Notes: generated by a model not told the origin, from the letters alone. A stretch of DNA of 64,000 bases from Actinomycetota bacterium (GCA_028718945.1 JAQUKT010000003.1:624-64623); one strand, 5' to 3'. Positions 2,578 to 63,149 are shown, numbered from the stretch's first letter. Made by a program: numbers and translations.

Positions 2578-2604
2578 GGGGTCAGGTCTTGCAATAACAC
2601 ATTT
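2578..2604 (+). repeat. REP-like repeat, arm A (GGGGTCAGGTCTTGCAATAACACATTT), solo copy
   Basis: Same 27-mer recurs at 9842, 15217, 62221 and 63117 on the + strand and at 15275 and 51822 on the - strand. This copy artificially extends the pdxS ORF upstream ([12 protein letters not shown]). Confidence 0.8.
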
Positions 2605-2683
2605 ACGTTATTTTTTGCCCTTCCATTTATTAAGAATTGCAGCTCCCCTCTGGATTCGTTATCATATTAAAGGGGATGATTTT

Positions 2684-3571
2684 ATGAAGTTAGAGAAAGC
2701 TACAGATAGGGTAAAAAGAGGACTTGCTGAGATGCTCAAAGGCGGGGTAATCATGGATGTTACAACGCTTGAGCAGGCAAAAATTGCTGAAGATGCGGGA
2801 GCCGTTGCCGTAATGGCTCTCGAGAGGGTTCCTGCTGACATAAGGGCTTCCGGTGGTGTTGCAAGGATGGCTGACCCTGCAATTATCGAGGCAATAATGG
2901 GTGGGGTAACCATCCCGGTGATGGCGAAGTGCAGAATTGGTCATTTTGCAGAGGCGCAGGTTCTCGAGGCATTGGGGGTTGACTATATTGATGAGAGTGA
3001 GGTGCTCACTCCTGCTGACGAAAGCAATCACATAGACAAGAGAAAGTTCAAAGTTCCATTTGTATGCGGCGCGATAAATCTTGGTGAAGCGCTCAGGAGA
3101 ATCGGCGAAGGTGCTGCAATGATAAGGACTAAGGGTGAGGCTGGAACCGGAAATGTTGTAGAAGCGGTAAAGCACATGAGAAAGATCAATGGAGAGATAA
3201 GATGGCTCAATGGGCTTCCGGAAGACGAGCTCATGGCTGCCGCAAAAGAGCTCAAAGCACCGTATGAACTCGTTGTCGCGGTTGCAAAAAAGGGCAGACT
3301 CCCGGTTGTAAACTTCTCTGCTGGTGGAATTGCGACACCTGCCGACGCGGCGTTGATGATGCAGCTTGGTGCTGATGGAGTTTTCGTTGGCTCGGGTATA
3401 TTTAAATCAGAGGACCCATCCCGCAGGGCGAAAGCGATAGTTGAGGCTACCACTCATTATGAAACCCCCGATTTGGTTGCTAAAGTTTCAAGAGGGCTTG
3501 GCGAAGCAATGTCAGGAATTGAAATAGACAAGATGAGCAAGGAGGAAATGCTTCAGTTTCGTGGCTGGTAA
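2684..3571 (+). CDS. pdxS: Pyridoxal 5'-phosphate synthase lyase subunit PdxS
   Basis: MKLEK...[37 protein letters not shown] matches the PdxS/SNZ family. ATG at 2684 is preceded by AAAGGGGA. Confidence 0.9.
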
Positions 3572-4157
3572 GATTCTCAACATTGGCGTGCTTGCTCTTC
3601 AAGGGGCTTCAAGGGAACATATTACAATGCTCGAAAGGTGTAGAGTCCGGGGGGTTGCCATAAAGAAACCTTCCGGGCTTAAGAATGTTGACGGAATTGT
3701 CATTCCCGGAGGAGAAAGCACCACGATTGGAAAATTAATTGATGAGTATGAATTTATGGATGAAATCCGTGGACTTGCAAATGGTGGTTTTCCAGTTTTT
3801 GGAACCTGTGCTGGAATGGTAGTTCTTGCGAAAAAAGTAAACGGGAGTCACGGTAAACTACTTCGCCTGATTGATATTACGGTCAATCGCAACGCTTTCG
3901 GGCGACAGGTGGATTCGTTTGAGGCTGATATTGAAATAAGGGGGATTGAGAGAGAAGAGATTCCCTTTAGGGCTGTTTTCATTAGGGCTCCTTTTATCGA
4001 GGAGGCTGGAGATGGAGTTCGTGTGATGGCTGAAGTCGAAGGGAAAGAAGTCATGGCGCGACAGGGTAACATCCTGGTTTCCGCGTTTCACCCGGAGCTT
4101 ACGGATGACAGCCGAGTTCATGAGTATTTTCTTCGAATGGTGAGGAATAGCATTTAA
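3561..4157 (+). CDS. pdxT: Pyridoxal 5'-phosphate synthase glutaminase subunit PdxT
   Basis: [19 protein letters not shown] and the GTCAGM catalytic Cys region; overlaps pdxS by 11 nt. Confidence 0.9.
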
Positions 4158-4169
4158 CTGGAGGTCTTC

Positions 4170-4934
4170 ATGTCCGGTCATTCGAAATGGCACTCAATAA
4201 AGCACAAGAAATCGAAAACTGACGCCAAAAGAGGCCAACTTTTCAGCAAACTTTCGCAAAAAATAATGGTCGCTGCCAAGGAGGGTGGTGGGAATCCAGA
4301 AGCGAATCCGACTCTTGCTACTGCTATAGAAACGGCGAAGAGTTACTCAATGCCGGCGGAGAGAATAAAGAGAGCTATTCAGAAGGGAACCGGGGAACTT
4401 TCGGGAGGGAAGCAGCTTGAACACATGAGTTTCGAGGGATACGGCGAAGGTGGCGTGGCGATACTTGTTGAGGTACTTACTGACAACAGGAATAGAGCCT
4501 CGTCCGATGTAAAAAGAGTGTTCACCCGTGCTGGAGCGAAGATTGCGGAGCCTGGTTCTGTTTCCTGGCTTTTTGAAAAAAAGGGAGTTGCTATCGTTCG
4601 GAAAGAGGATGTTTTAGATGAGGATGTGCTGCTTTCTGTTGCGCTCGAGGTTGGCGCTGATGATATAAGGGACGAAGGAGGTGACTGGGAAATAATAAGT
4701 GACGTCGAGCACTTCAAGAACGTAAGAGAAAGTCTTGAAACTAAAGGAATCAAGCTCGATGGGTTCGAACTCACGATGTTTCCCAAAAACAGCGTTCCGC
4801 TCGAGAAGGAGGCTGCGAAAAAGGTTCTGAAGCTTCTTGAGAACTTGGAGGAGCTCGATGACGTTCACGAGGTTTATGCGAATTTCGAAATTCCTGACGA
4901 GGTGATGGAAGAAGTTGCGTCTCTTTCAGACTGA
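4170..4934 (+). CDS. yebC: YebC/PmpR family probable transcriptional regulator
   Basis: N-terminus MSGHSKWHSIKHKKSKTDAKRGQLFSKL is typical of YebC; conserved position upstream of ruvCAB. Confidence 0.9.
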   Translation: MSGHSKWHSIKHKKSKTDAKRGQLFSKLSQKIMVAAKEGGGNPEANPTLATAIETAKSYSMPAERIKRAIQKGTGELSGGKQLEHMSFEGYGEGGVAILVEVLTDNRNRASSDVKRVFTRAGAKIAEPGSVSWLFEKKGVAIVRKEDVLDEDVLLSVALEVGADDIRDEGGDWEIISDVEHFKNVRESLETKGIKLDGFELTMFPKNSVPLEKEAAKKVLKLLENLEELDDVHEVYANFEIPDEVMEEVASLSD

Positions 4935-4997
4935 TGGCAGGTTCCAGTTTTCCATTCATATTCTGCCGATGTTAGAAAGGAAGCGGGGAAAGCGGAA

Positions 4998-5495
4998 TTG
5001 AGAGTGCTTGGAATAGACCCGGGAATCGCAAATACCGGATATGGACTTGTGGAAGCGGAGAATGGAAAGTTGAGCGCTATTTCGTTTGGCTCCATCAGAA
5101 CTGACAGTAAGGATACCAAGGATTTACGCCTCGACAGGTTATATCGAAAGATGATGAACATCATCGAAGAACTTTCGCCCGATGTGGTTGTCTTGGAAAG
5201 CCTTTTCTTCAGTACCAACAGGAAGTCTGCTTCTGCTGTTGGCGAGGCGCGTGGAGTGATTATTCTTGCCTGTTCGCATTCAGGGGTTCCATTTTTCGAG
5301 TATGCCCCGCTCGAAGTGAAAATGACTGTCGCTGGAAACGGAAATGCCGGGAAGGAACAGGTAAAGTATATGGTCGAACATCTTTTGGGCATTACTGAAA
5401 GCCAGATTTCGCTTCATGCAACCGATGCTTTGGCCATGGCAATATGCTACATTCACCGCTCTCGACTTCGCTCATTGTCCGGGAAGGACGGTTGA
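4998..5495 (+). CDS. ruvC: Crossover junction endodeoxyribonuclease RuvC
   Basis: (L/M)RVLGIDPGIANTGYGLVE...DALAMAICYIH; TTG start. Confidence 0.9.
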   Translation: MRVLGIDPGIANTGYGLVEAENGKLSAISFGSIRTDSKDTKDLRLDRLYRKMMNIIEELSPDVVVLESLFFSTNRKSASAVGEARGVIILACSHSGVPFFEYAPLEVKMTVAGNGNAGKEQVKYMVEHLLGITESQISLHATDALAMAICYIHRSRLRSLSGKDG

Positions 5496-5501
5496 GGTCT
5501 A

Positions 5502-6107
5502 TTGATTGGTTACATCGAAGGAAAAGTTACCGCGAAAGATCCGAAGAGATTGCTTCTTGTCGTTCAGATTGGCGGTCTCGGATTTGAAGTTCTTGTTCCT
5601 GCTGGAACTCTTGAAAGAGCCCCCGATATGGGAGAGGATATTTCACTTCATACATTCCTCCATGTTCGCGATGATTTGCTCCAGCTTTTTGGTTTCGATT
5701 CAGTTCGAGCAAGAGACCTCTTTGTCAAACTGATGTCCATCTCAGGATTTGGACCCCAGAAGGCTATTGGTGCGCTTTCAGTTTTTTCTCCCGAGGATTT
5801 TGAGGAAATGATAAGGAATTCAGATATTGAAAGGCTCACCGAAATTCCGGGCATAGGGCGAAAAACAGCCGAGAGAATGGTCTTAGAAATGCGCGATAGA
5901 ATTGAGGAGCCATACCCACGGGCAGAATTGTCCGGAACCGCCTTCAGAGTTATGGAGGAGGCAGTCGAAGCGATGGTCGCGCTTGGGTTTTCATCCTCCG
6001 AGGCAAGAGGGGCATTGAGGGAATTCAAAGGTGATGTTCGAGGAGTAACGGTGGAGGAAATGATTCAATTCGGGCTCAAATTCATAGGAAGTGGAAAGAG
6101 GCACTAA
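5502..6107 (+). CDS. ruvA: Holliday junction branch migration protein RuvA
   Basis: MIGYIEGKV...LVVQIGGLGFEV, HhH motifs IPGIGRKTAERM. Confidence 0.9.
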   Translation: MIGYIEGKVTAKDPKRLLLVVQIGGLGFEVLVPAGTLERAPDMGEDISLHTFLHVRDDLLQLFGFDSVRARDLFVKLMSISGFGPQKAIGALSVFSPEDFEEMIRNSDIERLTEIPGIGRKTAERMVLEMRDRIEEPYPRAELSGTAFRVMEEAVEAMVALGFSSSEARGALREFKGDVRGVTVEEMIQFGLKFIGSGKRH

Positions 6108-7130: not shown

Positions 7131-7155
7131 AAAATTTTCAGATTGAGGGATTGAT

Positions 7156-7694: not shown

Positions 7695-7698
<4 letters not shown>
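7156..7698 (+). CDS. queH: Epoxyqueuosine reductase QueH (DUF208)
   Basis: ILIHTCCAPC...FFYNPNIHP...CKYCFKMRL are hallmark QueH motifs. Confidence 0.85.
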
Positions 7699-9925
<2,227 letters not shown>

Positions 9926-10038
9926 ATGACACATGATCCGGAAAATGTTCTTGAGAGCTTGAGATAAAATGACAAACGGTTTTTCTTCATCTATCATAGT
10001 CGCATGTATTTGATGATTGATGGAAAGGAAGATGAAAC

Positions 10039-10452: not shown

Positions 10453-10477
10453 GGTATAGAACGGCGTCGATTGTAAA

Positions 10478-13039: not shown

Positions 13040-15237
13040 AAAGCGATGAAAATGTGAACAGGCTTTTTTCATTGACGAAGAAATTCCTTTCCAAGAGCGA
13101 ACAGAAGAAGCTCGAGAAGGCATACCAGTTCGCTTTTGAATGCCACAAGGACCAGTACAGAAAATCGGGAGAGCATTTCATAGAGCACCCTTTGACTGTC
13201 GCCACCTATCTTGCCCAGTTGAAACTCGATGCCGATACGATCTGCGCCGGGCTTTTGCATGATGTGGTGGAAGATTCAGAACTAACTCTCGATGATGTAA
13301 GAGAAGAGTTTGGCGAAGAAATATCGAGCATAATTGATGGCCTTACAAAACTGGAAAGATTCAGATTCAACTCGAGAGAAGAACAGCAGGCAGAGAACAT
13401 GCGCAGGATGCTGATTGCGGTTGCGAAAGATGTGAGGGTTATTCTTGTCAAACTTGCTGACAGACTCCACAACATGGAGACAATAAGCGCTCTTCCATCT
13501 GACCGCAGGCGTGAGATAGCTGAGGAAACACTCGAGATTTATGCTCCCCTTGCTCACAGGTTTGGAATTTCACAAGTCAAGTGGAGGCTGGAGGACCTTT
13601 CTTTCGAGGTTCTTCACCCGGAAAGATACCGTCAGGTTCAGGAAATGGTTGCAGAGAAGCGCCGGGAGAGGGAAAAGTACTTAGGATCGATCGAGAAGAA
13701 AATAGAGACTGAATTGAGGAGGAACAAAATAAAGGCGAGTGTTAGCGGAAGGGTAAAGCATTTTTTCAGCATATACGAGAAGATGGTCAATCGTGGAATC
13801 GAGTTCGATGAAATAATGGACCTTTCTGCTGTCCGAGTGATAGTTGAGTCAATCAAGGATTGTTATGCTGCTCTTGGGATAATTCATTCAATCTGGAAAC
13901 CGGTTCCGGGTCGGTTCAGGGATTATATCGCCATGCCAAAACTCAACATGTATCAATCTCTTCATACCGTGGTGATGAGCCATGATGGAAAACCGATTGA
14001 AATCCAGATAAGAACGAAGGAAATGCACAGGACAGCTGAGTTTGGGATTGCCGCGCACTGGCTCTACAAGGAACAGAAGAGAGAACACCACGGTAAAGCC
14101 TGGCTGAAACAGGTGATGGACTGGCAGGAGATGAAGGATCCCACCGAGTTCATGCGAACCCTGAAAATAGAGCTTTTCCAGGATGAGGTATTCGTTTTCT
14201 CCCCCCGGGGGAAACTCATTTCGCTGCCCAAGGGAGCAACTCCGATTGATTTTGCGTATCAAATACATACGGAAGTTGGGCACAGTTGCATCGGGGCAAA
14301 GGTGAATGGGAAGATGGTTCCTCTGTCCTATGAACTTCAGAATGGCAATATTGTGGAGATAATTACATCAAAGACGCCTCACGGCCCGAGCATAGACTGG
14401 CTTCAGATTGTTAAGAGCGCCCGGGCAAGATCGAAAATACGGCAGTGGTTCAGCCAAGAGAGACGCGAGGAGGAAAAAGAGGAGGGAAGGGAACTTCTTG
14501 AGCGCTCCTTGCGAAAGACGGGTTTGCCTGTTCACTCCCCTGAAGTCTCCAAGATCCTTTCACAGGTAGCATCTGAGTGCCATGCTGAGAGATTGGAAGA
14601 CCTTTATGTTCTTATCGGGTGTGGTCAGGTCTCAACAAATCAGGTAGCCAGCAAAGTCTCGCAATATCTTGGCGTAGGTAAAAGAGAGACAATCATTCCT
14701 GAAAAGGAAGAGCCAAAAAAACCCCCCGAAAAAGAGAAATTCACCCGCAGAATCATTGTAAACGGAATTGAGAATGCATTGGTTCAGATTGCGCAGTGTT
14801 GCAATCCCGTTCCAGGAGATAAGATAGTTGGATTTGTGACCAGGGGAAGAGGGGTTTCTGTTCATAAGGAAGGCTGCCCTAACTTCAAAGAACTTTCAAT
14901 AGACAGTGAAAGGATATTGGATGTTTCATGGGAGAAGGTTGAACCTGTAAGAGTTGTCGAGATATGCGTAAAGGCAATCGACAGACCCAAACTCGTGCGG
15001 GACATCACAGTTGTCCTTGGTGACCGCAATGTGAACATAATATCGGCGGCTTTCTCGACCAATTACGAAAACCTCGCTGTAAGTAATTTTGTGTTCGAAG
15101 TTGCAAGCGGAGCCCACCTCGACGAGATATTGCGTGAAATAAGAAAGGTTGACTCCGTCTACGATGTTTTCGAGGTTACTGGCGAGAAAGTTGGTGACAA
15201 AGGCGAATCCGGGACAGGGGGTCAGGTCTTGCAATAA
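13036..15237 (+). CDS. rel: Bifunctional (p)ppGpp synthetase/hydrolase RelA/SpoT family
   Basis: HD domain (HPLTVA...LLHDVVED), synthetase domain, TGS and ACT regions; 733 aa. Last codons run into the REP unit at 15217. Confidence 0.9.
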   Translation: MKSDENVNRLFSLTKKFLSKSEQKKLEKAYQFAFECHKDQYRKSGEHFIEHPLTVATYLAQLKLDADTICAGLLHDVVEDSELTLDDVREEFGEEISSIIDGLTKLERFRFNSREEQQAENMRRMLIAVAKDVRVILVKLADRLHNMETISALPSDRRREIAEETLEIYAPLAHRFGISQVKWRLEDLSFEVLHPERYRQVQEMVAEKRREREKYLGSIEKKIETELRRNKIKASVSGRVKHFFSIYEKMVNRGIEFDEIMDLSAVRVIVESIKDCYAALGIIHSIWKPVPGRFRDYIAMPKLNMYQSLHTVVMSHDGKPIEIQIRTKEMHRTAEFGIAAHWLYKEQKREHHGKAWLKQVMDWQEMKDPTEFMRTLKIELFQDEVFVFSPRGKLISLPKGATPIDFAYQIHTEVGHSCIGAKVNGKMVPLSYELQNGNIVEIITSKTPHGPSIDWLQIVKSARARSKIRQWFSQERREEEKEEGRELLERSLRKTGLPVHSPEVSKILSQVASECHAERLEDLYVLIGCGQVSTNQVASKVSQYLGVGKRETIIPEKEEPKKPPEKEKFTRRIIVNGIENALVQIAQCCNPVPGDKIVGFVTRGRGVSVHKEGCPNFKELSIDSERILDVSWEKVEPVRVVEICVKAIDRPKLVRDITVVLGDRNVNIISAAFSTNYENLAVSNFVFEVASGAHLDEILREIRKVDSVYDVFEVTGEKVGDKGESGTGGQVLQ

Positions 15238-15303
15238 CACATTTACCGACCCATTCTTAACAAGGCAGATAGAAAAATGTGTTATTGCAAGACCTGACCC
15301 CCC
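15217..15303. repeat. Complete palindromic REP-like unit: arm A, 30-bp loop, inverted arm A (perfect 27-29 bp inverted repeats)
   Basis: GGGGGTCAGGTCTTGCAATAACACATTT...AAATGTGTTATTGCAAGACCTGACCCCCC read directly; lies between the rel stop and the dtd start. Confidence 0.85.
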
Positions 15304-15784: not shown

Positions 15785-15787
15785 GGA

Positions 15788-32388: not shown

Positions 32389-32931
32389 TTGATTTTGAAC
32401 AACAAGTTCAAAATTCTTGTGACGGGACCATATAACTCGGGGAAGACAACATTCATAGGAACAATAAGCGAAATTCAGGTTGTATCTACCGAAAAAAAAT
32501 TGAGGAGTGCTCAAGGAACTACAACTGTGGCAATGGACTATGGAAGAATAACGTTGAGTGATGGAGATGTTATTCACCTTTATGGGACACCGGGTCAGGA
32601 AAGATTTGATTTCATGTGGAGAATTCTTTCAAGGGGGATTCTCGGTTACGTTGTGCTTGTTGATGGAAGCGATCCGGGGGCTTTCGCTCAAGTCTCAAAA
32701 ATTATTGATGTTTTTTCTAAGATGACTGATGCCCCGTACGTTTTATGTTTGACCCGTGCCGATCTTAGGGATTGCGTCTCTTCGGAAGAGGCAAGAAGGT
32801 TTATTAGGGCTTCCGCTGATGTAGATATCCTCGAATGCAATGCGAAGAGTAGAGAGGATGTGAGGGATGTCATAGTGTCTCTTCTTGAAAGAGTCATTGA
32901 GAGTATGGAGGCTAAGTGTTTCGTTCCATAG
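32389..32931 (+). CDS. Small Ras-like GTPase, COG2229 (CvnD/MglA-related) type
   Basis: P-loop GPYNSGKTT, TTVAMDYGRI, LYGTPGQERFDFMW and VVLVD match Roadblock-associated COG2229 GTPases. Confidence 0.75.
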   Translation: MILNNKFKILVTGPYNSGKTTFIGTISEIQVVSTEKKLRSAQGTTTVAMDYGRITLSDGDVIHLYGTPGQERFDFMWRILSRGILGYVVLVDGSDPGAFAQVSKIIDVFSKMTDAPYVLCLTRADLRDCVSSEEARRFIRASADVDILECNAKSREDVRDVIVSLLERVIESMEAKCFVP

Positions 32932-33076
32932 ATACGGTGTCGTATAGAGAGAGCGTCGAGGTGCCGCTCCCGCAAGGCGCGCGACCAACGCGTACTTCTG
33001 TTGTACTCGGAGGGAGCGGAACGCTCTTCTGTGGATAGATCGGCGATTGAATGCAACCGTATTTATGGAATGGAGC
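32914..33076 (-). repeat. ~160-bp GC-rich element with 18-bp terminal inverted repeats, copy 1 (minus orientation)
   Basis: About 90% identical to the reverse complement of 48908-49067; TIR CCGTTCCATAAATACGGT / ACCGTATCTATGGAACGG. Confidence 0.8.
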
Positions 33077-33131
33077 ACTAAGGAAAACAGGATGACTTCA
33101 CTTCACGCTTGAATTCATAAAGAGGTGGAAG

Positions 33132-33998
33132 ATGAGGATCGATGGAAATACGAGACTTGTTGGTATCATAGGCAATCCTTTAGAGCACACCCTGTCGCCC
33201 GTGATACATAATGCAGCTTTCGACTACATGGGATTGAACTGGTGCTATGTCCCGCTTCCAGTTGAACATGATGAGATCGAGAAAGCGCTTGAAGGTATCA
33301 AGGTTTTTAGGTTTGCGGGTGTAAATGTGACAATGCCGTTCAAGACCGCGGTTCTTCCTTTTCTTGACGAGGTTGCAATGTTTGCTGAATCCGTCGGTGC
33401 GGTGAACACTATATTATTCGATAAGGACAAACTCATAGGTTACAACACGGATGGGCGCGGTTTCTATACTGCTTTGAGCCGCGATTTAGGTTATGATGTA
33501 AGGGGAAAGAAGGTCTTGATTCTCGGTGCTGGAGGAGCCGCAAGGAGCGTAACTATTTCACTCGCTGTTGCTGGTTGCTCGAGAATGGTCATTGTGAATC
33601 GCTCGAGCGAAAGGGCGAGGAGTCTTAAGGAAATAATAAGAAGAAGTTCTTCTGATGTTGAGGTGCAGTGTCTCACTCCCGAGGAAGACTATGACGTTCT
33701 TCTTGCAGATTCGGATTTGATAATAAACGCGACACCTGTTTTTTCTTTCGGGAAGTCTGGGTTGAGAATTCCTGTTGCCATGCTGAACAAAAGTCAGGTT
33801 GTGTGTGACCTCAATTATTCATCATACTATTCCCCTCTCCTCGAGGAAGCAGAGGCACGAGGCGCTACCGTCATGGATGGGAAAGGAATGTTGCTTTATC
33901 AGGCAGCGACAGCTTTTGAGATATGGACGGGGCTCGAGGCACCCGTTGAAGTAATGAGAGTAGCGCTTCTGAGGGCGCTCGATGAAGCACGTATTTGA
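33132..33998 (+). CDS. aroE: Shikimate dehydrogenase AroE
   Basis: LVGIIGNPLEHTLSP...NVTMPFK...GAGGAARS. Confidence 0.88.
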   Translation: MRIDGNTRLVGIIGNPLEHTLSPVIHNAAFDYMGLNWCYVPLPVEHDEIEKALEGIKVFRFAGVNVTMPFKTAVLPFLDEVAMFAESVGAVNTILFDKDKLIGYNTDGRGFYTALSRDLGYDVRGKKVLILGAGGAARSVTISLAVAGCSRMVIVNRSSERARSLKEIIRRSSSDVEVQCLTPEEDYDVLLADSDLIINATPVFSFGKSGLRIPVAMLNKSQVVCDLNYSSYYSPLLEEAEARGATVMDGKGMLLYQAATAFEIWTGLEAPVEVMRVALLRALDEARI

Positions 33999-44797: not shown

Positions 44798-45400
44798 ATG
44801 CCTGAGAGTATCAAGAAAATGAAGCCAAAAAAAAGTGATTCAATGTCAAAAAGAAAGAAGAACATAATTCTTGTTTCTTCGGTTTTGATTGCTGTTCTCG
44901 CACTCGGTCTTCTATTTATTGGCTCAGGGGGAGAGAAAAACAGGGGCAATATTACTGCTCAGACAAGTGCCCCCCAGACTTCCGGAGCCCAGACGCCTGC
45001 TACAACTCAGGAAACCAATGTGGAAGATATAATAGTTCCTCCGCTTTCGATATACAGGCGAAGGAATCCATTCAAACCGCTTGTGAATATGGAAGCCCCC
45101 GAGGCCGCCGCTACAACTCCTACAGGTACGGGCGGAGTTGTTGTTATTCCTCCGGAGATTGAGGCGGGTCTTTCAAATCCAGTTGTATCGCGCGCCATTA
45201 CTCTCGGGGGCATAACAAGGGAAAAGGGAAAAACATACGCGAGCATTCGTGTAAGTGATTCGGTTTTCGATAAAGTCGGAGTCGGCGATGTATTTGCGGA
45301 TAATTATAAATTGATTTCTCTTGGCAATGATGGGACTGCGACCATTTTGTATGGTGATGAGCGGTTTACGATTTCTGTTGGTCAGTCAGTCTATTGGTAA
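44798..45400 (+). CDS. Membrane-anchored hypothetical protein, PilP-like position in pilus operon
   Basis: Lys-rich N-terminus + TM + Thr/Ala-rich linker + C-terminal beta-rich domain; no family recognised. Confidence 0.4.
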   Translation: MPESIKKMKPKKSDSMSKRKKNIILVSSVLIAVLALGLLFIGSGGEKNRGNITAQTSAPQTSGAQTPATTQETNVEDIIVPPLSIYRRRNPFKPLVNMEAPEAAATTPTGTGGVVVIPPEIEAGLSNPVVSRAITLGGITREKGKTYASIRVSDSVFDKVGVGDVFADNYKLISLGNDGTATILYGDERFTISVGQSVYW

Positions 45401-45409
45401 TTGGTAATT

Positions 45410-45433
45410 GGGGTCAGACCTTCATTTTTGGTG
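45410..45433 (-). repeat. REP-like repeat arm B, minus orientation (GGGGTCAGACCTTCATTTTTGGTG on + strand)
   Basis: Reverse complement of arm B at 9903 and 55246. Confidence 0.75.
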
Positions 45434-45520
45434 TTTTTCCATCTAATCGGCGCGTTTTGCTATAGCGTTAGTGTTATCTCGAAGATTTTTTTGAGAAGAC
45501 CTTGAATGTTCAAGGGAGTT

Positions 45521-48456: not shown

Positions 48457-48897
48457 TTGGAGAGGATACTCATCATAAATGGTCCGAATCTGAATCTCTT
48501 GGGAGAGAGAGACCGAAAAGCCTACGGTCAAAAGACGCTCGAGGAGATAAATACTTTAATCAAAGGAGTGGCGGACGAACTTTCCGTGGAGGTGGAGTTT
48601 TTTCAGTCGAATCATGAGGGAGACCTTATTGACAAGATTCACGAGGAGAGAAAAAAAGCGGATGGAATAATAATCAATCCAGGCGCGCTAACGCACTACA
48701 GTTTCGCTCTTCATGACGCGCTCGAAGCGGTTGGCTTGCCGACGGTCGAGGTGCACATAAGTGATATAGACAAAAGGGAAGAGTGGCGCAGGCATTCGGT
48801 CATAACGCCGGTCGCCTGGAAGGTAATCAAAGGAAAAGGATTCGAAGGATACCTTGTTGCTTTGCGCGAACTGGTAAATCATATTCGCGCGCAGTAG
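48457..48897 (+). CDS. aroQ: Type II 3-dehydroquinate dehydratase AroQ
   Basis: ILIINGPNLNLLGERD...QSNHEG...IINPGALTHYS. Confidence 0.88.
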   Translation: MERILIINGPNLNLLGERDRKAYGQKTLEEINTLIKGVADELSVEVEFFQSNHEGDLIDKIHEERKKADGIIINPGALTHYSFALHDALEAVGLPTVEVHISDIDKREEWRRHSVITPVAWKVIKGKGFEGYLVALRELVNHIRAQ

Positions 48898-48907
48898 GCT
48901 TGCTGCC

Positions 48908-49067
48908 CCGTTCCATAAATACGGTTGCATTCTATCGCCGATCCATCCACAAAAGAGCGTTCCGTTCCCTCCGAGTACAACAGAAGTACGCGTCGGTCGT
49001 GCGCCTTGCGAAAGCGGCGCCTCGACGCTCTTGGTACGATACCGTATCTATGGAACGGAACACTTGA
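48908..49067 (+). repeat. ~160-bp GC-rich TIR element, copy 2 (plus orientation)
   Basis: See copy 1 at 32914-33076; ORFs predicted through both copies give similar peptides only because the DNA is repeated. Confidence 0.8.
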
Positions 49068-49076: not shown

Positions 49077-51074
49077 TCAATTTCCATTATCGAAGACGGT
49101 GGAATAATTCTTATAGACGATGATGCTAACACGCGTCATTTTGTCTTGAAGTTTACGGGAATCGGGGTTTAGCTTTACGGTAAAACCCTCATTCATGTTT
49201 GAAAGTTTTGCGTCTTCGATCAATGCCCCTCTTGATGCTTTCTCCGCCATTGCCCCGGCAGTCTCGCCTTTAGTAATCCCGACCATGAGAGTCATCGTTC
49301 CCTTACTTGCGGAAGATTCAACGCCAATGCTATTTCTTGTTATGCTCCATGAATCGGGATAGAGTTCCGAGTTGAGAAGGCAGGCGAAGAAAACCTTCTC
49401 TTCTCCTCCTGCAAGCAGGAATGGTTTCGCTACATTGAAGGGCGAAGAAATGGTTTCGGAAGCCCTTGGCATTGGAATTTTGCCTTCAGGAATGATTACT
49501 TCTCCTGATGGAGAAATTTCCAACTTCAGGAAGTCTTGTTTGAACGCCATGCCATTGCTTTCCTGCTCTCCTTCGCATTTCACATATACGAAGGGCTCTC
49601 CACGTGCAAGAATAATGGTGTATCTCCACCTTTGACCGGAGGAGTCGAAGACAACCTGGCATGCCACCTGGTCATTGCCGGAGAAGATAATTTTTGGCCC
49701 ATCAAATATCTTTGAGTTTTCTAAGGGGCTCAAAAGTGGACCTGCCTCCCCTCCGTCGGATAGACTGGTGATTTTTGAAAGGATTTGCCCGGGAATTTTG
49801 CCAATGCGCACACTTATAATCCCATTTGAAAGTTCAATTACATTTTTTGAAGTGTTGAACTCGGGTGGAGCGCCCGCAGCCTCGCTTAAGGTTTCAAGTC
49901 CTCCCAAGGTGAGGACATCTCCAAGGTCATGAAAAACACCGTTTTGCAAAACGGAAAGAGAAATTCTCGAAGTTACCCTTGCGAATTTCTTCTCGACTTC
50001 AAATCTACACATTCCGCTGCTATCGGTTTTGAGGTAAGCATCCCCGAGCATCCCGTTGATTGTTGAAGTGCCGGTTCTGTCAGAAATCCTGACCTGCGCA
50101 TTCTCAACGGGCATTCCATCTTTTCGCCTGAGTTGCAGTTCAAAATCCTGCGGTGTGTTGAGTGGCAAAACTTCCAGGGATGGTTCGATAGTGGCTTCAT
50201 ACTGAGGAGAGAATGCGGAAGAGACGGGTGCAATTGGGGCAATTTGCTTTCTACCATCGAGCTCCACGACAACATCGAGGTTTCTCAATAGTTCTTTTGG
50301 ATCAGTGTTTCTCGCGTCAATGTCAAACTCGAATACCCCATTCCTGTCTGCCATTCCCTCAATCGCTGTCTTTCCGCAGAGAGCCTTTGTTCCTCCTTTG
50401 GAATCAACAACTTCTATTCTTGCCCCGCTCGCGCGTTTCAAAAGAATTTCCGGCTCGCTCGAGGCAAGAGTTCTTTCGATGTTGCTTTGCTTCGTCTTCA
50501 GGTTCTTTATCTCGCCTGTTAATTCAAAACCTCCCGCGAAATCTCTTTTGCCCATGATTTCACTGGCGGATTTCAGTTTGCTGTTGTAGTCAATACTTGC
50601 AAGCTCAATGTTTTCATGCTCAGCCTCTTTGGATTCAATGAGTTTTTGAACCTCTGAAAGCCTGACGTTTGCAAGTTCGAGATATTTTTTTGCCTTATTC
50701 TTCTGATTGAACGTAAAGGCAAGGGACACATTTTCTCCTGCCTTCTTGAATGTATATAAAGGGTCTCCAGGTTTCGTGTTTCGCGCAGCAACTGTAAGTC
50801 CCCCGAAAATCGCGAAAAGAAGAACAAGTGAAATACCCGCACTGACCGCTATTTTGAAGGGCAAACTTCTCTTGAGCGCTCGATGCTCTTCTCCTGCGCG
50901 CCTCTCAGTAGCCGGTATGAAAATGGAAGGAAAAAGTGAAGCAAAAAATATCTTTACCTTGAATGCCAACCCCGCTTTTGCTTTTGGGATAGCCTTCAAT
51001 CTTTGGACTATCGCGAGCAAATCCTCGTATTGTTTCATATTACTTTTACTATTCAGGTTTCTTTTGTTTCTCAT
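49077..51074 (-). CDS. Membrane-anchored anti-sigma factor-like protein with DUF5667-like extracytoplasmic domain
   Basis: Overlaps and follows the ECF sigma gene; single TM (AVSAGISLVLLFAIFGG), then PGDPLYTFKKAGENV...LELANVRLSEVQKL, DUF5667-like. Confidence 0.55.
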   Translation of the reverse strand: MRNKRNLNSKSNMKQYEDLLAIVQRLKAIPKAKAGLAFKVKIFFASLFPSIFIPATERRAGEEHRALKRSLPFKIAVSAGISLVLLFAIFGGLTVAARNTKPGDPLYTFKKAGENVSLAFTFNQKNKAKKYLELANVRLSEVQKLIESKEAEHENIELASIDYNSKLKSASEIMGKRDFAGGFELTGEIKNLKTKQSNIERTLASSEPEILLKRASGARIEVVDSKGGTKALCGKTAIEGMADRNGVFEFDIDARNTDPKELLRNLDVVVELDGRKQIAPIAPVSSAFSPQYEATIEPSLEVLPLNTPQDFELQLRRKDGMPVENAQVRISDRTGTSTINGMLGDAYLKTDSSGMCRFEVEKKFARVTSRISLSVLQNGVFHDLGDVLTLGGLETLSEAAGAPPEFNTSKNVIELSNGIISVRIGKIPGQILSKITSLSDGGEAGPLLSPLENSKIFDGPKIIFSGNDQVACQVVFDSSGQRWRYTIILARGEPFVYVKCEGEQESNGMAFKQDFLKLEISPSGEVIIPEGKIPMPRASETISSPFNVAKPFLLAGGEEKVFFACLLNSELYPDSWSITRNSIGVESSASKGTMTLMVGITKGETAGAMAEKASRGALIEDAKLSNMNEGFTVKLNPDSRKLQDKMTRVSIIVYKNYSTVFDNGN

Positions 51075-51663
51075 GATTCAGGTCTTCTTGTTTTCCTTCC
51101 TCGAGACCGGAAGCTTTTTCTGATTCACCAAGTTTTTCTCTTAAGTTCTTTATTCCCTTGAACTGAAGCGCTCTTACTGTCACCTCTTTCTTACCCAGGA
51201 TATATGCAGTTTCCGCGACGCTTCTATCCTCAATAAACCTCAATATCAGAACCTCTGCTTGTGCCTTTGGCAATTCAGTCACATTTCCATATAGAGTTTT
51301 CAAATCATCTTTCTTCTGAATGTCCTCTTCAATCCTGTTTTCAACCGGTATATCCGCTACTTCATCAATGTCCAAAGATCCCTTTTGTTTCCTGAAATTG
51401 TCGACCACCTCGTTATGCGCAATCTTGAAGAGCCATGCTTTTACAGAATATCCCCTCTCCTCATAGGACTCCACGGTTCTCAGCCCATGCATGAAGACCT
51501 GCATCGTAAGGTCTTCCGCGTCGCTTCTGTTTCCGGTTCTTCTGTATATGTAGTCATAAATTTCCTCATAACACAGCTTGAAGAGCCTCCCATACGCTCT
51601 CCTGTCACCTTTTCTCGCCATTTCTACGAGACTTCTTAGCAAGTCTTCCTGGCTTTTCGCCAT
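51049..51663 (-). CDS. ECF (sigma-70 region 2/4) RNA polymerase sigma factor
   Basis: Region 2 (YRRTGNRSDAEDLTMQVF) and region 4 HTH (AEVLILRFIEDRSVAETAYILGKKEVTV). Confidence 0.85.
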   Translation of the reverse strand: MAKSQEDLLRSLVEMARKGDRRAYGRLFKLCYEEIYDYIYRRTGNRSDAEDLTMQVFMHGLRTVESYEERGYSVKAWLFKIAHNEVVDNFRKQKGSLDIDEVADIPVENRIEEDIQKKDDLKTLYGNVTELPKAQAEVLILRFIEDRSVAETAYILGKKEVTVRALQFKGIKNLREKLGESEKASGLEEGKQEDLNHEKQKKPE

Positions 51664-51821
51664 TACCTTCTATCCTTTGAAACGAATGACAGCTTATTTT
51701 GTTAACTCTTACATTTCGAGGTCGGCATAACCTTTGGGCCCTGTCATATTATAATGCGCCTGGCAATTCTTGAGCTTCGGGGCTGCTATAAATCAGATTG
51801 GAACATTTTTTATCTAACCGC

Positions 51822-51848
51822 AAATGTGTCATTGCAAGACCTGACCCC
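51822..51848 (-). repeat. REP-like repeat arm A, solo, minus orientation
   Basis: CAAATGTGTCATTGCAAGACCTGACCCC is the reverse complement of arm A. Confidence 0.8.
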
Positions 51849-53119: not shown

Positions 53120-53122
53120 CTC

Positions 53123-53724: not shown

Positions 53725-55110
53725 CTAAATTGAAGGGTCGCCGATGAGAGTCATGCCGAGAACGACTCTCCTTTGGTCTGAATTTTTCATGAGGGAGGAG
53801 TTCCTGACAGTGTATTCGTCAATAGCCCGCGCAAGCGCGTCTCCAAATGTCATTTTCTTGTTGATGAAATTCTCGAGAACGTCCTCTCCAATCTCAAAGT
53901 GCAGCCCTCCGGTTTTTTCAAGCGCGGCTTTGTAGTCATCCCTTGTGAAAGAGAAGAAATCCCTTGACATTCCGCAGGCAGAAATTGCACCACCCTCTTG
54001 CATCACGAGCGCTTCTGTAATCGAATAGTCCGGTTCATAATCGAAAGCCGAAATAACGCACCCGAAACCGAGGAAGAAAAAGGGCGTTTTGTTCCTGAGG
54101 TTTTTAACCTTCTCCGAATCAAGAACCGCCTCAGAAAGTTCTTTTTCATACCATTTTGAATATCTTATATCCCGGCAGGCTTCAAGGACATTTTTCTCAT
54201 CTTGGGGCGAGATTCCCCGCGATTGGAGGCTTTTCAGCCTCTTTATTGAATTTACCACCAGACCGAATGGAAAACCGTGGGTTATTCCTACAACGACAGA
54301 GTAATTCCCGCTGTTGATTTCTCTTATTACCTCGGAAGGAGTTATTTTCCCCTCACGTAGTATTTTCCCTTCCCATCCTTGAAAGATAGACCTGAGGCGC
54401 TTTGAGAAATCATACCCTTTCAAGATTTGTCCCATGTCCTTCAGGGCTTCTATCAAAAGGTATCTTTCTTCCCCGGGTTTTCTGTAATCCATGATTTTTT
54501 CAATAACCGGTTTCAGGTCACGGGCAGATTTTGCTGGGATCCTTCCAACTGAAATATCATGGGAATATCCACCTTCAAGCAGGTTGCCGGTGATTTCCCC
54601 GTATATGCCGTTTCTATTTATATCCCAGTTGTCAGAAAGATTCGCGAAATAAAGGTCAGATGGCACGTAGTATCTTTCATACTCGAGCGGGTTTCCTCTT
54701 CTGGCTTTTTCTCTTTCCCGTTCCCTTCCCGGAACCACTCCCTCGAATGGGCAGTAAACATATCTAACCGGAACCAATTTCTCATCGCCGAGTAGAAGAA
54801 GGTATTTTATCTTTTTTCGCCTGTGATATTCGCGCACGAGTTCTCTCATTTTTTCTGGTAGGTCTTTCCCCTCAAAGTTCTTCTCTATGTGCGATGTTGT
54901 TACAACGGCTGCTGGAATACCATTCTTCGTCTTGAACCTTGCGAGTTTTTGAGCGTCCTCGAAAAACTCTTTATGAGTGATAATCAGGAGGTCTATTTTC
55001 TTGCCCTGCTCTTTGGGATATATTTCCACCTGATTTGCGCAACCAGCAGAAAACACGCAAATTACCATTAAGGTAGATATTAGAGTAAGCGCAAACCTTA
55101 AATATTTCAC
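53725..55110 (-). CDS. Lipoprotein, clan CD (C25 gingipain/C11/caspase-like) cysteine peptidase-like
   Basis: Lipobox LMVICVFSAGC; hydrophobic strand + His-Gly (VVVGITHGF) and hydrophobic strand + small-Cys (FFFLGFGCV) as in clan CD catalytic dyads. Confidence 0.5.
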   Translation of the reverse strand: MKYLRFALTLISTLMVICVFSAGCANQVEIYPKEQGKKIDLLIITHKEFFEDAQKLARFKTKNGIPAAVVTTSHIEKNFEGKDLPEKMRELVREYHRRKKIKYLLLLGDEKLVPVRYVYCPFEGVVPGREREREKARRGNPLEYERYYVPSDLYFANLSDNWDINRNGIYGEITGNLLEGGYSHDISVGRIPAKSARDLKPVIEKIMDYRKPGEERYLLIEALKDMGQILKGYDFSKRLRSIFQGWEGKILREGKITPSEVIREINSGNYSVVVGITHGFPFGLVVNSIKRLKSLQSRGISPQDEKNVLEACRDIRYSKWYEKELSEAVLDSEKVKNLRNKTPFFFLGFGCVISAFDYEPDYSITEALVMQEGGAISACGMSRDFFSFTRDDYKAALEKTGGLHFEIGEDVLENFINKKMTFGDALARAIDEYTVRNSSLMKNSDQRRVVLGMTLIGDPSI

Positions 55111-55245
55111 GATGACCTTTCTTGACTTACATTTGAAATGTTAACATTCTGCTGGGACATTTATTTTTCAACTTTCTTCTGTTTTCCTCCGAATACTCGA
55201 ACAAAGGCAAATAAAGGCAAAAAAGAGTATAATTCAAAAGAGAAA

Positions 55246-55269
55246 CACCAAAAATGAAGGTCTGACCCC
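55246..55269 (+). repeat. REP-like repeat arm B
   Basis: CACCAAAAATGAAGGTCTGACCCCC is identical to 9903-9925. Confidence 0.75.
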
Positions 55270-55365
55270 CGCGTAAACGATGAAGGGTGTTTTTCGTTAT
55301 AAATATTGGAGTTCTGGTAAAATAATATCGTGAATATATGCTTTCCCTTGGGGAAAGGAGGAAAG

Positions 55366-58086: not shown

Positions 58087-58098
58087 AGGGGAAGAGAT

Positions 58099-58722: not shown

Positions 58723-58723
58723 T

Positions 58724-61639: not shown

Positions 61640-61657
61640 CATTTGATGTATCTTAAA

Positions 61658-61688
61658 AGGACCGGCTCAGAGCCGGTCTTTTTTATAT
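61658..61688 (+). terminator. Rho-independent terminator after the minor-pilin operon
   Basis: GACCGGC-tcaga-GCCGGTC followed by TTTTTTATATT, directly after the 61639 stop. Confidence 0.65.
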
Positions 61689-61735
61689 TGGTTGTTTTTT
61701 TGATAATATCTACATGTTTGAAAAGGAGGCGGAAG

Positions 61736-62221
61736 TTGAGATTTTTTGCATTAAGGAAAGGGCTTGCGTTTCTGCTCGTTTTTCTCTTCATTGCTGGATT
61801 TTCGGGTTGCGGGCGGAGTGTGGATTCCTACAAGGCGGAATACAAAAAAAGGCTCGATTCTTTCGAGGATAGAGTCACGAAGGACGACAAAAAAGTTGGA
61901 GGGCTGATTTCGAAAAATGACATAGCGGGGGCTTTGAAGGAAATAAGAAGGAGAGTGCGTGATGTTGATTCCTTTACCACTAAGATGATTGACATGCTTC
62001 CGCCGGATGAGCTTCAAAGAGTCTATATCCTTACCCTCTATTACCTCTCCTGCCTTGCCAGTCAACTCGAGGCGCAGGAAAGCTGGCTTGACGCCGCAAT
62101 TGCGGGAAAGCCAACCAATGATTTGCAGGAAATCGTGAAGAAAGAAGCGGGAAAAACAAAGTTTGCCGGTTCTGAACTTGCCATTGAACTTCAAAAGCAG
62201 GGAATCACCCTCAACAAGTAG
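61736..62221 (+). CDS. Hypothetical lipoprotein
   Basis: TTG start after AGGAGG; signal MRFFALRKGLAFLLVFLFIAGFSGC (lipobox). The longer ORF from 61643 merely translates the terminator hairpin. Confidence 0.5.
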   Translation: MRFFALRKGLAFLLVFLFIAGFSGCGRSVDSYKAEYKKRLDSFEDRVTKDDKKVGGLISKNDIAGALKEIRRRVRDVDSFTTKMIDMLPPDELQRVYILTLYYLSCLASQLEAQESWLDAAIAGKPTNDLQEIVKKEAGKTKFAGSELAIELQKQGITLNK

Positions 62222-62246
62222 GGGTCAGGTCTTGCAATACGACAAT
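62221..62246 (+). repeat. REP-like repeat arm A, solo
   Basis: GGGGTCAGGTCTTGCAATACGACA immediately after the lipoprotein stop. Confidence 0.8.
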
Positions 62247-62291
62247 TTTATGTAAACCAAGTCATTATTTTGAAAGAGAGCAGAGAAAAGC

Positions 62292-63149
62292 ATGAATCGC
62301 TGCGAAAAACACCCCGATGAAGATTCAATGGTTACCTGCATGAGTTGTGGAAGGAACTTCTGCAGAATCTGCCACCCGCTCCTCGGTGCCGGTCAGTATT
62401 GCCCGAGGTGCCATGAGGAATACATCGAGAAGCTCGGGAAGGGCGCCGAAGCGATTCCAGTCGAGCAAAAAGGCAAGTCAAAATCTCTATTGAAATCTCT
62501 TGTCGAGAAAATCAAAAGATTTTTCAGCGCCGTGCCGAACGCGATTCTTTCCGCTTTGAGGAAATGCGCGAAGTTCTTTGTTTTTATTGCTCACCTTCCG
62601 GTAAGGATTTTCAGAAGAGTCGCAAGCGAAATCAAAGAACACTTCCCGTTTTCTCTCGCTGAAAGAAAGGATTTATCAGATATATCAGTTTTTCAAAAAA
62701 TCTGGTGGAAGCTCGTCATCTCTCTTTTTTCGGGTCTTATTCTATGGGTTATTGTGGTTATGATTTTCCACCAGAGGAATCCAGCCTTTTCGCTTGTAGT
62801 TTCAGCCATTGTTGCTTTTTTTGTTTCCTTCTTTTTTGGCTGGGAATTCGGGGTTCCAGTCGGAATACTTTCATGCCTCGTTGTGCTTGGAGCGCTTTCG
62901 CTTGGTGAAGTAGTGGCACAGGTCTTGTGCAGGGCGAAAATATTGAGACTAAACGATGTTCAAACCATAGGTATCGTTCAGCTTGGGAGCAAGGAAACAT
63001 TTGGATTTTCGTTTGTCATCAAGGTAATTCTTCAAAGGCTTCTTCCCTCGGCAGCGCTTGCCTTCCTGATAGGCTACTGGCCGCTTCCCAAGCGCCCTGC
63101 CTGGCGCGGCTGGCATGGGGTCAGGTCTTGCAATACGACAAAATCTTGA
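62292..63149 (+). CDS. Zinc-ribbon/B-box-like N-terminal domain membrane protein (hypothetical); 3' end overlaps a REP copy
   Basis: CEKHPDE...CMSCGRNFCRICHP...YCPRCH Cys/His pattern followed by ~4 TM helices; last 11 codons (WHGVRSCNTTKS) lie in the repeat. Confidence 0.5.
   Translation: MNRCEKHPDEDSMVTCMSCGRNFCRICHPLLGAGQYCPRCHEEYIEKLGKGAEAIPVEQKGKSKSLLKSLVEKIKRFFSAVPNAILSALRKCAKFFVFIAHLPVRIFRRVASEIKEHFPFSLAERKDLSDISVFQKIWWKLVISLFSGLILWVIVVMIFHQRNPAFSLVVSAIVAFFVSFFFGWEFGVPVGILSCLVVLGALSLGEVVAQVLCRAKILRLNDVQTIGIVQLGSKETFGFSFVIKVILQRLLPSAALAFLIGYWPLPKRPAWRGWHGVRSCNTTKS
63117..63143 (+). repeat. REP-like repeat arm A, 20 nt upstream of the RAYT start
   Basis: GGGGTCAGGTCTTGCAATACGACAAAA. Confidence 0.8.

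Follow-up and report, generated by a model that had tools for sequence, protein, structure and literature searches.

The window analysed here, a single stretch of 64,000 nucleotides from an Actinomycetota bacterium, carries two families of short repeats, arm A and arm B, and ends within the gene for a RAYT-like Y1/HUH protein that adjoins one of the repeats (Table 1). Arm A, with the core GGGGTCAGGTCTTGCAAT, is present seven times and arm B (GGGGTCAGACCTTCATTTTTGGTG) three times, which gives a local density of 10 arms in 64 kb, or 1 arm per 6.4 kb, and bears out a preliminary description that had put at least 10 copies in the window. The arms occupy eight sites, namely six single arms (including the one beside the RAYT-like gene), one A/A doublet and one A/B pair. 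All eight are intergenic or overlap at most 27 terminal codons of an ORF, as that description had also held, in a window that is ~89% ORF. The arm at 62221 shares its first G with the stop codon of ORF 61643-62221, of which it is the final base, and relA/spoT takes its 6 terminal codons and its TAA stop from the left arm of the doublet.

Table 1. Repeat arms and associated features of the window (positions counted from its first nucleotide).
Feature	Position	Strand	Context
Arm A (A1), solo	2578-2606	+	106 nt upstream of pdxS (start 2684)
Head-side tandem duplication, AAAGATGGGGG x2	9824-9845	+	Second unit overlaps the start of arm A by four bases
Arm A (A2)	9842-9868	+	Left half of chimeric head-out A/B pair; last 27 codons of tgt
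Arm B (head TGGGTCAG)	9903-9926	-	Right half of chimeric pair; tgt stop codon inside
A/A head-out doublet, REPIN/MITE-like	15217-15302	.	Perfect 28-nt arms, 30-nt loop
Head-side duplication, ATTGGTA x2.7, then solo arm B (45410-45439)	45393-45439	+	Flanked by a gene end (45400) and aroC (45580)
Arm A (A2), solo	51820-51848	-	Divergent intergenic, ECF sigma gene (51049-51663, minus) / ORF 51867
Arm B, solo	55240-55269	-	Divergent intergenic, C25 peptidase gene (53725-55110, minus) / ORF 55330
Arm A (A3), solo	62221-62247	+	71 nt upstream of ORF 62292
Arm A (A3), left TIR of TIRtron	63117-63143	+	Begins 46 nt upstream of ATG
Promoter-like TTGCAA-17 nt-TATGAT	63128-63156	+	-35 in the TIR; -10 ends 6 nt upstream of ATG
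TIRYT gene, RAYT-like Y1/HUH + C-terminal HTH	63163-64000	+	Cut by the window end

Arm A was searched as a 27-mer with up to 3 mismatches over the whole window, with 100 shuffles as the control. The search returned the copies at 2578+, 9842+, 15218+, 15275-15301(-), 51822-51848(-) and 62221+, and none of the 100 shuffles contained any match. The 63117+ copy falls outside this search because it has only the first 25 nt in common, and it contains the exact 18-mer core. An nhmmer profile built from 141 arms of other genomes recovered all seven A copies in the window and no further, degenerate ones. Arm B matches lie at 9903-9926 (head TGGG, 1 mismatch), 45410-45433 and 55246-55269. The head GGGGTCAG occurs 10 times in the window against 1.75 expected; its occurrence at 56357 was set aside as a chance match, being within a long ORF and losing all similarity after the head. 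No Rfam family was found in the whole window at the gathering threshold, and searching the literature by sequence found the 17-mer in no paper and only unrelated matches to a reverse-complement 11-mer.

The A copies fall into three subtypes: A1 (..AATAACACATTT; 2578, 15218 and 15301), A2 (..AATGACACATTT; 9842 and 51848) and A3 (..AATACGACAA; 62221 and 63117). The identity over 27-29 nt of copies 12-49 kb apart in these subtypes points to recent copying of arms in the window. The facing pair of arm A around a 30-nt loop, reported as perfect in the preliminary description, is indeed so (15217-15244 / 15275-15302), and the folding check proposed there, run on the doublet as single-stranded DNA, gave -34.4 kcal/mol (z = -9.9). 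No T-run follows the doublet and a simple terminator scan was negative there, so a role as terminator was rejected.

The complete protein (P0001) has 282 aa. It matches Y1_Tnp in Pfam (1.3e-12) and NCBIfam NF047646 REP_Tyr_transpos with 88.1 bits (cut-off 80). Sixteen homologues all preserve the motif HYH at aa 60-62 (H60-Y-H62) and Y119 in RYIVLNPV without change. In the C-terminus HTH_38, HTH_23, HTH_28 and Sigma70_r4_2 match at aa 246-279, all below their gathering cut-offs, with the weak HTH_38/HTH_23 matches at aa 253-278. A search of the PDB with the single sequence found no match; the profile reached E. coli TnpArep (4ER8, E = 0.0075) with both motifs aligned and also matched the HTH of the Lac repressor. 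An AlphaFold model from 16 sequences was not used for a fold search because its mean pLDDT of 48.9 was too poor. On its sequence, the gene is classed as a TIRYT, a predicted Y1/HUH enzyme of the RAYT kind with an added C-terminal HTH.

Positions 12-17 of the arm (TTGCAA) form the -35 box of a predicted promoter 6-9 nt upstream of the ATG, and this geometry is conserved in TIRtrons of both the A and the B type. A -10 box ending 6 nt before the ATG suggests that the TIRYT mRNA is leaderless.

Relatives of the protein share 41-75% identity and come from ~14 phylum-level groups in all. At least 17 of them have the 18-mer 45-50 nt upstream of the ATG together with an inverted copy just after the stop codon, and the left-arm position of 45-50 nt before the ATG recurs in >20. 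The exact 18-mer was found at >115 loci of ~14 phylum-level groups, a conservation that is partly ascertainment because the search required an exact match. The converse check, which started from the protein and is free of this bias but covers a small sample only, comprises three independent elements (P0002, P0055 and P0098/P0100): all have the 18-mer 46 nt upstream of the ATG, and in all the stop is accompanied by an inverted copy, which in L151 has decayed to TATTGCAAAACTGACCCC. Among the loci fetched by the 18-mer there are 13 convergent arm pairs of TIRtron size. At the locus L154 a TIRtron is rearranged into tandem genes with shared arms. The other genomes contain 81 solo arms, 40 doublets and 33 tandem pairs, and the arm pairs within 150 nt are head-out in 40 cases and tail-out in 0. 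Dispersed arms were absent from three independent 20-kb loci of relatives, and therefore possession of a TIRYT alone does not cause spread; the apparent arm density in the window is higher than in these three. The 285-aa zinc-ribbon membrane ORF between the arms at 62221 and 63117 was considered as a passenger gene and rejected, as its homologues are absent from all other fetched loci.

The idea that arm A and arm B are the two halves of one element does not hold. TIR type follows protein clade, each element being A/A or B/B and never mixed across its sides, and elements of a second TIRYT clade are flanked by arm B on both sides. Arm B is thus, on this sequence comparison, the TIR of the second clade and not the partner of arm A. 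Because arm B belongs to a different TIRYT clade, the A/B pair at 9842-9926 is a chimera, and the TIRYT of arm B must be elsewhere in the genome or have been lost.

About a quarter of the arms have head-side tandem duplications, which are present in every arm category. GGGGTCA lies up to 40 nt upstream of the arm in 35 of 148 A arms, and in 21 of the 148 a piece of flank and the adjoining arm prefix are exactly duplicated in tandem. For 9-12 of these 21 the prefix so repeated is the 7-nt GGGGTCA, the commonest end point, and this end may mark a site of cleavage or joining. Target-site duplications were absent from 29 of 44 pairs, the rest showing matches of 1-3 nt and one 7-nt case; this lack is as expected for Y1 enzymes.

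What, then, are the repeats? TIRYTs and TIRtrons were named by Di Nocera, De Gregorio and Rocco (2013, BMC Genomics 14:522, PMC3733652), who gave the TIR head as GGGGWSAS. TIRYTs correspond to TnpA_REP subclass 2.1, whose members end in an HTH and lack a classical REP; it is the second-largest TnpA_REP subclass, found in 14.9% of strains (Quentin, Siguier, Chandler and Fichant 2018, BMC Genomics 19:475, PMC6006769). A TIRtron is a TIRYT gene between two inverted 25-30-nt arms with this head, and GGGGTCAG fits it. Like a TIRYT, the protein of the window is a RAYT-like Y1/HUH protein longer than RAYTs, with a C-terminal HTH (in the class, of Bac_DnaA_C, HTH_23 or HTH_28 type). As in TIRtrons, a long, non-self-complementary repeat lies at a fixed short distance from the gene (here seen on the left side, and in relatives inverted on both), and copies of the TIR are dispersed as singles, dimers and groups. 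There is no essential difference. We therefore consider it likely that the repeats are the terminal inverted repeats of TIRtrons together with solo and doublet copies derived from them. The window contains one A-type TIRtron from its left arm at 63117 through the gene to the window end, the right side lying beyond, and further arms at seven other sites. The claim that the repeats are independent short repeats and not the termini of an insertion sequence has thus to be divided: the arms are the TIRs of a transposase unit, and they also occur as solo and doublet copies.

The nearest alternative, which we regard as improbable, is that of classical REP/BIME elements or REPINs, palindromic stem-loop units that are recognised by a RAYT and specific to one genome. 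A REP/BIME unit is a 20-40-nt imperfect palindrome or stem-loop with a GTAG or CGTC end, extragenic and present in tens to hundreds of copies per genome. In REPINs, the inverted doublet is the replicating unit and singlets are decayed remnants. The repeats of the window are likewise short, extragenic, dense and free of target-site duplications, a RAYT-family gene adjoins them, and one perfect doublet looks like a REPIN. The likeness to REP/REPIN systems with their RAYTs (E. coli TnpA_REP, 4ER8; the REPINs of Pseudomonas, Bertels and Rainey 2011) extends to the homologous HUH/Tyr catalytic core, to a gene bracketed by inverted repeat copies (both sides seen in relatives) and to dispersed extragenic copies with long-hairpin doublets. 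However, the unit here is non-palindromic, and the single arms at 2578, 62221, 63117 and 45410 show no folding beyond that of shuffles (z = -0.02, +1.57, -0.24 and +0.12). The head is GGGGTCAG (TGGGTCAG at 9903-9926) with no GTAG or CGTC tag, and the protein has an extra HTH. Six solo arms stand against two doublets in the window. That all six singlets are intact and non-degenerate while one doublet is perfect fits a REPIN poorly, although the sample from the window is small. The repeat core is common to ~14 phylum-level groups, whereas REP families are species-specific, and Quentin et al. (2018, PMC6006769) describe no REP-like sequences beside subclass 2.1.

Because single arms lack the palindrome, the fold and the GTAG/CGTC tag that define REP/BIME elements, they lie outside that class, and strict REP membership is already contradicted. 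Of the earlier assignment to REP elements there remain the dispersed extragenic family tied to a RAYT-family Y1/HUH gene and the REPIN-like doublet; what falls is the assignment of the unfolded, untagged single arms with their cross-phylum core (>115 loci). The labels REP and RAYT are accordingly replaced by TIRtron and TIRYT for the repeats and the adjoining gene.

Two further systems share single features with the repeats. IS200/IS605 elements (IS608, ISDra2) have an enzyme of the same Y1 HUH superfamily (Pfam Y1_Tnp), no target-site duplications and possible cleavage beside a short conserved end sequence, but their ends are dissimilar with subterminal hairpins, whereas here inverted repeats lack hairpins, and their transposases have ~150 aa and no HTH. 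MITEs of DDE transposases are short, non-coding and built from the TIR pair of an autonomous element, like the doublet at 15217-15302; unlike them, the repeats show no consistent target-site duplication in 44 pairs, many single arms and a Y1 nuclease.

It is also unlikely that solo arms and doublets are nothing but scars, that is, leftovers of internally deleted TIRtrons whose arms are immobile by themselves. The exclusive head-out orientation is the expected product of internal deletion, and the rearrangement in L154 points the same way. Internal deletion should, however, leave two arms with variable inner remnants, and at 6 of the window's 8 sites there is one arm alone, which breaks off sharply on its inner side at 25-30 nt. 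The abundance of solo arms in other genomes argues against scars as well, the loops of the doublets are unlike the inner sequence of TIRtrons, and an A/B chimera is impossible from one element. Least probable is that the arms are operators or portable promoters for the HTH of a domesticated TIRYT with a regulon of pdxS, aroC, the ECF sigma and C25 peptidase genes and others: the -35-like TTGCAA is in use upstream of the TIRYT gene and the window's three solo arms between co-directional genes all face the next gene start, but across genomes such arms are aligned with the genes in a ratio of only 19:9, convergent genes, which need no promoter between them, enclose 16 arms and divergent ones 5, inspection of the window's solo arms shows no -10 box 17 nt away as in the conserved arrangement, and doublets face their own loop. 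A promoter or regulon role of solo arms is thus unsupported by the orientation statistics.

How might TIR-derived arms spread? Given the association of arms and gene, TIRYT would bind the arm, probably as duplex DNA via its HTH, and the HUH/Tyr centre would then cut and rejoin one strand, in the manner of the related E. coli TnpA_REP and IS608 TnpA. Arms would be copied in trans into new gene-poor positions without target-site duplications. Head-out doublets may be internally deleted TIRtrons or paired arms, and as single-stranded DNA or RNA they could fold into long hairpins. Head duplications of 5-12 nt of flank plus GGGGTCA point to breakage and joining after GGGGTCA. We tentatively hypothesize, while regarding it as rather doubtful, that TIRYT and TIR represent a distinct Y1 mechanism, in which the HTH guides the HUH Tyr enzyme to a hairpin-less duplex 18-nt site and the nick falls after GGGGTCA; the cross-phylum duplications of flank plus GGGGTCA would then be the footprint of nicking and rejoining in vivo, at a site that also provides the -35 box of the promoter from which a leaderless transposase mRNA would start. 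This dual use of TTGCAA, as arm core and as -35 box, may contribute to the identity of the 18 nt across ~14 phylum-level groups while the proteins diverge to ~41-50% identity.

Four observations are absent from Di Nocera 2013 and Quentin 2018, the two papers of the searched library in which TIRYTs are mentioned: the invariance of the 18-nt core over ~14 phylum-level groups, the residence of two TIR families side by side together with an A/B chimera, a -35 box within the TIR with leaderless geometry, and GGGGTCA tandem duplications at the head side. TIRYTs have barely been studied, neither paper reporting experiments on them, and the family now offers as handles an 18-nt site that is defined, a cut position and a leaderless promoter that are predicted, and hosts in culture. 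The motif is present in cultured Methylomonas subterranea SURF-2, Thiorhodococcus mannitoliphagus DSM 18266 and Arsukibacterium ikkense GCM72.

The 18-mer had no match in viral contigs, and homologues are rare on plasmids, in 30 of 72,556 records, with only one of full length. A Logan contig that includes aroC shows no difference from the window (100% identity) and therefore gives no empty-site comparison; the region is there on a 5.6-kb contig only. Arms may contribute to such fragmented assemblies, and they provide stop codons and C-terminal tails to the housekeeping genes tgt and relA/spoT, both of which matter for the annotation of MAGs.

The short repeats of the window are best filed as the terminal inverted repeats (TIRs) of a TIRtron, a TIRYT gene bounded by such repeats, together with solo and doublet derivatives, and they represent two co-resident families. 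The dispersed family noticed in a preliminary description is real and non-random: there are seven copies of arm A and three of arm B, and arm A had no match in 100 shuffles of the window. Searching the window with a profile of 141 arms taken from other genomes gave the seven A copies and nothing else; degenerate A copies were absent. An eleventh GGGGTCAG head, at 56357, is a chance occurrence within a 918-aa open reading frame (ORF) and has no further similarity. This stretch is chromosomal and rich in housekeeping genes (pdxS, tgt, yajC, relA/spoT, dtd, aspS, alaS, pilB, aroC, aroQ, and aroE), and at 8 of 8 sites the repeats are intergenic or cover just the last few codons of an ORF, as first described. 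The relA/spoT stop codon is supplied by an arm, and the last 27 codons and the stop of tgt come from arms. The inverted doublet described at 15217-15303 was likewise borne out, with 28-nt arms around a 30-nt loop, and folding of the unit as single-stranded DNA gave -34.4 kcal/mol (z = -9.9).

Repeats and associated features of the window
Feature	Position	Strand	Remark
Arm A, 27 nt	2578, 9842, 15218, 62221	+	Motif scan
Arm A, 27 nt	15275-15301, 51822-51848	-	Motif scan
Arm A, seventh copy	63117		Exact 18-nt core GGGGTCAGGTCTTGCAAT; 25 nt in common with copy 62221
Arm B	9903-9926, 45410-45433, 55246-55269		Three copies; reverse complement GGGGTCAGACCTTCATTTTTGGTG
Doublet	15217-15244 / 15275-15302		Perfect inverted repeat
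A/B pair	9842-9926		
Head-side duplications	9824-9845, 45393-45411		Two small examples
Promoter-like site	63128-63156		TTGCAA-17-TATGAT; layout spans 63128-63163
TIRYT gene	63163 to window end	+	Protein P0001
285-aa ORF	62292-63149		Between same-orientation A3-subtype arms 62221 and 63117
~165-nt repeat	32914-33082	+	
~165-nt repeat	48899-49065	-	
Tandem repeat	30-596		Window start

The TIRYT gene starts (MARPLRIEFPGAVYHITARGN...) 46 nt downstream of the last arm A and runs past the window end. Its full protein, P0001, has 282 aa and is named 'transposase [Actinomycetota bacterium]' at NCBI (contig of 64,695 nt). The protein matches Pfam Y1_Tnp and exceeds the NCBIfam cut-off for REP-associated tyrosine transposase; its C-terminus weakly matches several helix-turn-helix (HTH) families, all below the Pfam cut-offs. 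Among 16 homologues, neither the HUH motif (H60-Y-H62) nor the Tyr of RYIVLNPV varies, and a profile of these 16 found E. coli TnpArep (4ER8) with both motifs aligned. We expect the right TIR to be TATTGCAAGACCTGACCCC-like and to lie about 40 nt or less past the TIRYT stop (~64,012), beyond the window. Several close homologues (P0025, P0054, P0055, and P0062) carry the NCBI/UniRef name 'addiction module toxin RelE,' which looks like a propagated mis-annotation because they have Y1_Tnp and no RelE domain.

How widespread is this arrangement? An exact-match search with the 18-nt core of arm A in one genome per species (596 Gb) found at least 115 loci, about 17 matches being expected by chance. 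Judged by record titles, the matches listed cover about 14 phylum-level groups, including Pseudomonadota (beta, gamma, and zeta), Nitrospirota, Desulfobacterota-type 'delta' lineages, Methylomirabilota/Rokubacteria, Acidobacteriota, Gemmatimonadota, Actinomycetota, Elusimicrobiota, Planctomycetota, Nitrospinota, Bipolaricaulota, Parcubacteria, Poribacteria, and Eisenbacteria. Nearly all listed matches continue to a 25-26-nt consensus (GGGGTCAGGTCTTGCAAT-NNN-RCAT) or possess an inverted partner. Full-length homologues of the window protein in these loci (45-57% identity) have inverted arms on both sides, the left arm starting 45-50 nt (occasionally about 105 nt) before the ATG and the right arm ending 4-79 nt beyond the stop. 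As a guard against ascertainment bias, homologues were also picked by protein similarity only (P0002, P0055, and P0098/P0100); in all of them the 18-mer again lies 46 nt upstream, and a copy in inverted orientation stands at the stop, which in one locus (L151) has decayed to TATTGCAAAACTGACCCC. The A-type proteins share only 41-69% identity with one another (median, 50%) and the 18-mer is kept, which indicates that the DNA site is conserved far better than its gene. In locus L154 (9955-11800), on a 177-kb contig, the whole TIRtron unit has been duplicated in tandem: the genes for P0098 and P0100 stand one behind the other, each preceded by a left arm, and one right arm follows the second gene. 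Dense arrays of arms and arm fragments adjoin TIRYT genes in three further loci (L108, 424-1177; L112, 2834-2935; L106, 5967-6110), with as many as 11 same-strand copies packed into about 750 nt and, on the right side, repeats of the unit ...GCAAGACCTGACCCC+flank.

Arm B had been grouped with arm A in one family. A metagenome scan with GGGGTCAGACCTTCATTTTT yielded 34 loci, in which a TIRYT gene (MARPLRLEYEG...) has arm B 49 nt ahead of its ATG and an inverted copy behind its stop; the TIR type is the same on both sides within each element. Because B-type TIRYTs have B arms on both sides and most of their proteins cluster apart from the A-type proteins, arm B is the TIR of a second element family and does not form one element with arm A. 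In the window, the A/B pair folds weakly (z = -1.7) and is a chimera. A B-type TIRYT should be present, or have once been present, elsewhere in the genome, outside the window.

The fetched loci contain 40 head-out pairs less than 150 nt apart, 13 TIRtron-sized head-out pairs, 33 tandem pairs, and 81 solo arms, and no tail-out pairs. Positions 12-17 of the arm read TTGCAA (TTCATT in type B); a TAnnnT lies 16-18 nt further on, and the ATG comes 6-9 nt later, with no Shine-Dalgarno sequence. More than 20 relatives, A-type and B-type alike, share this geometry with the window (among them L017, L045, L075, L097, L100, L102, L103, L109, L112, L118, L120, L138, and L152). From this spacing we infer a TIRYT promoter whose -35 box lies within the TIR, and a leaderless TIRYT mRNA. 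Such dual use may add to the invariance of the core.

Among the A arms, 35 of 148 have a second GGGGTCA within 40 nt outside the head, as do 9 of 42 B arms; chance would give well under 1%. An exact tandem duplication of a segment made up of 5-12 nt of flank plus an arm prefix is seen 24 times (21 A and 3 B); the prefix is most often the 7-nt GGGGTCA and sometimes the whole arm, giving 33-35-nt tandem arrays. Head-side duplications affect about a quarter of the arms, in many phyla and both TIR families, and are found at solo arms, doublets, and both TIRtron ends (19-35% per category); examples are in L048, L049, L060, L076, L085, L103, L109, L112, L132, L138, and L149. They may be the footprint of the enzyme's cut-and-rejoin site: arms would repeatedly break and rejoin after GGGGTCA, the part of the arm common to all TIR types.

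The repeats had been classed as REP elements, and the REP/RAYT system is alike in outline, a Y1 enzyme with cognate short repeats. However, the window family is not a REP/BIME member: single arms show no folding beyond that of shuffles (z = -0.02, +1.57, -0.24, and +0.12), the GTAG/CGTC tag is absent from them, and their core is common to many phyla. Membership in IS200/IS605 is rejected because the arms are inverted repeats without hairpins; the window protein, moreover, is twice as long as the proteins of that family and has an HTH in addition. A DDE-type MITE does not fit 44 head-out pairs without a consistent target-site duplication, a lack that is likewise predicted for Y1 enzymes.

The TIRtron class accommodates the repeats. 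Di Nocera et al. (2013; PMC3733652) described RAYT-like genes flanked by long TIRs and not by REPs, coined the names TIRYT for the genes and TIRtron for the units, and noted that many such TIRs begin with GGGGWSAS at a constant distance from the gene and that some genomes hold moderately abundant single, dimeric, and grouped TIR families. Quentin et al. (2018; PMC6006769) assigned 20 of the 26 Di Nocera proteins to TnpA_REP subclass 2.1, defined by a C-terminal HTH (Bac_DnaA_C, HTH_23, or HTH_28), and did not find REP-like sequences beside subclass 2.1 genes. The window head agrees with GGGGWSAS, and all defining features that can be tested within the window are present. In the literature searched, only these two papers mention TIRYTs, both without experiments on them. 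The window TIRtron is an added case of a known, experimentally untouched class; as far as that literature shows, the invariant 18-nt core, the putative leaderless promoter inside the TIR, and the duplication footprint at GGGGTCA are new details.

A role of the arms as a regulon or portable promoter is unsupported: across genomes, solo arms between codirectional genes point with the genes in a ratio of only 19:9, and 16 lie between convergent genes versus 5 between divergent ones. No T-run follows the doublet behind relA/spoT. Arm dispersal is lineage specific: three independent 20-kb loci of relatives have no arms besides those of the TIRtron, against eight extra ones in the 64-kb window. Plasmids seldom carry TIRYT homologues (30 of 72,556 records), and the 18-mer had no match in 2.9 million viral contigs. 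The patchy cross-phylum distribution implies horizontal spread.

The 285-aa ORF between the two A3 arms encodes a zinc-ribbon (CxxC...CxxC) at the N-terminus, with several membrane helices predicted as well; an arm provides the final 11 codons of the ORF, and no homologue lies beside TIRYTs in the other loci. A second, noncoding repeat family of about 165 nt has two intergenic copies in inverted orientation (89-90% identity) beside the shikimate-pathway genes aroE (33132-33998) and aroQ (48457-48897). Both copies are bounded by 24-nt terminal inverted repeats of their own (AGTGTTTCGTTCCATAGATACGGT ... ACCGTATTTATGGAATGGAGCACT), and Rfam gave no match; the family may represent a MITE or a small RNA gene. 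The tandem repeat at the window start has a period of about 306 nt and units 72-90% identical, and probably reflects a repeating protein domain in a gene truncated by the window edge.
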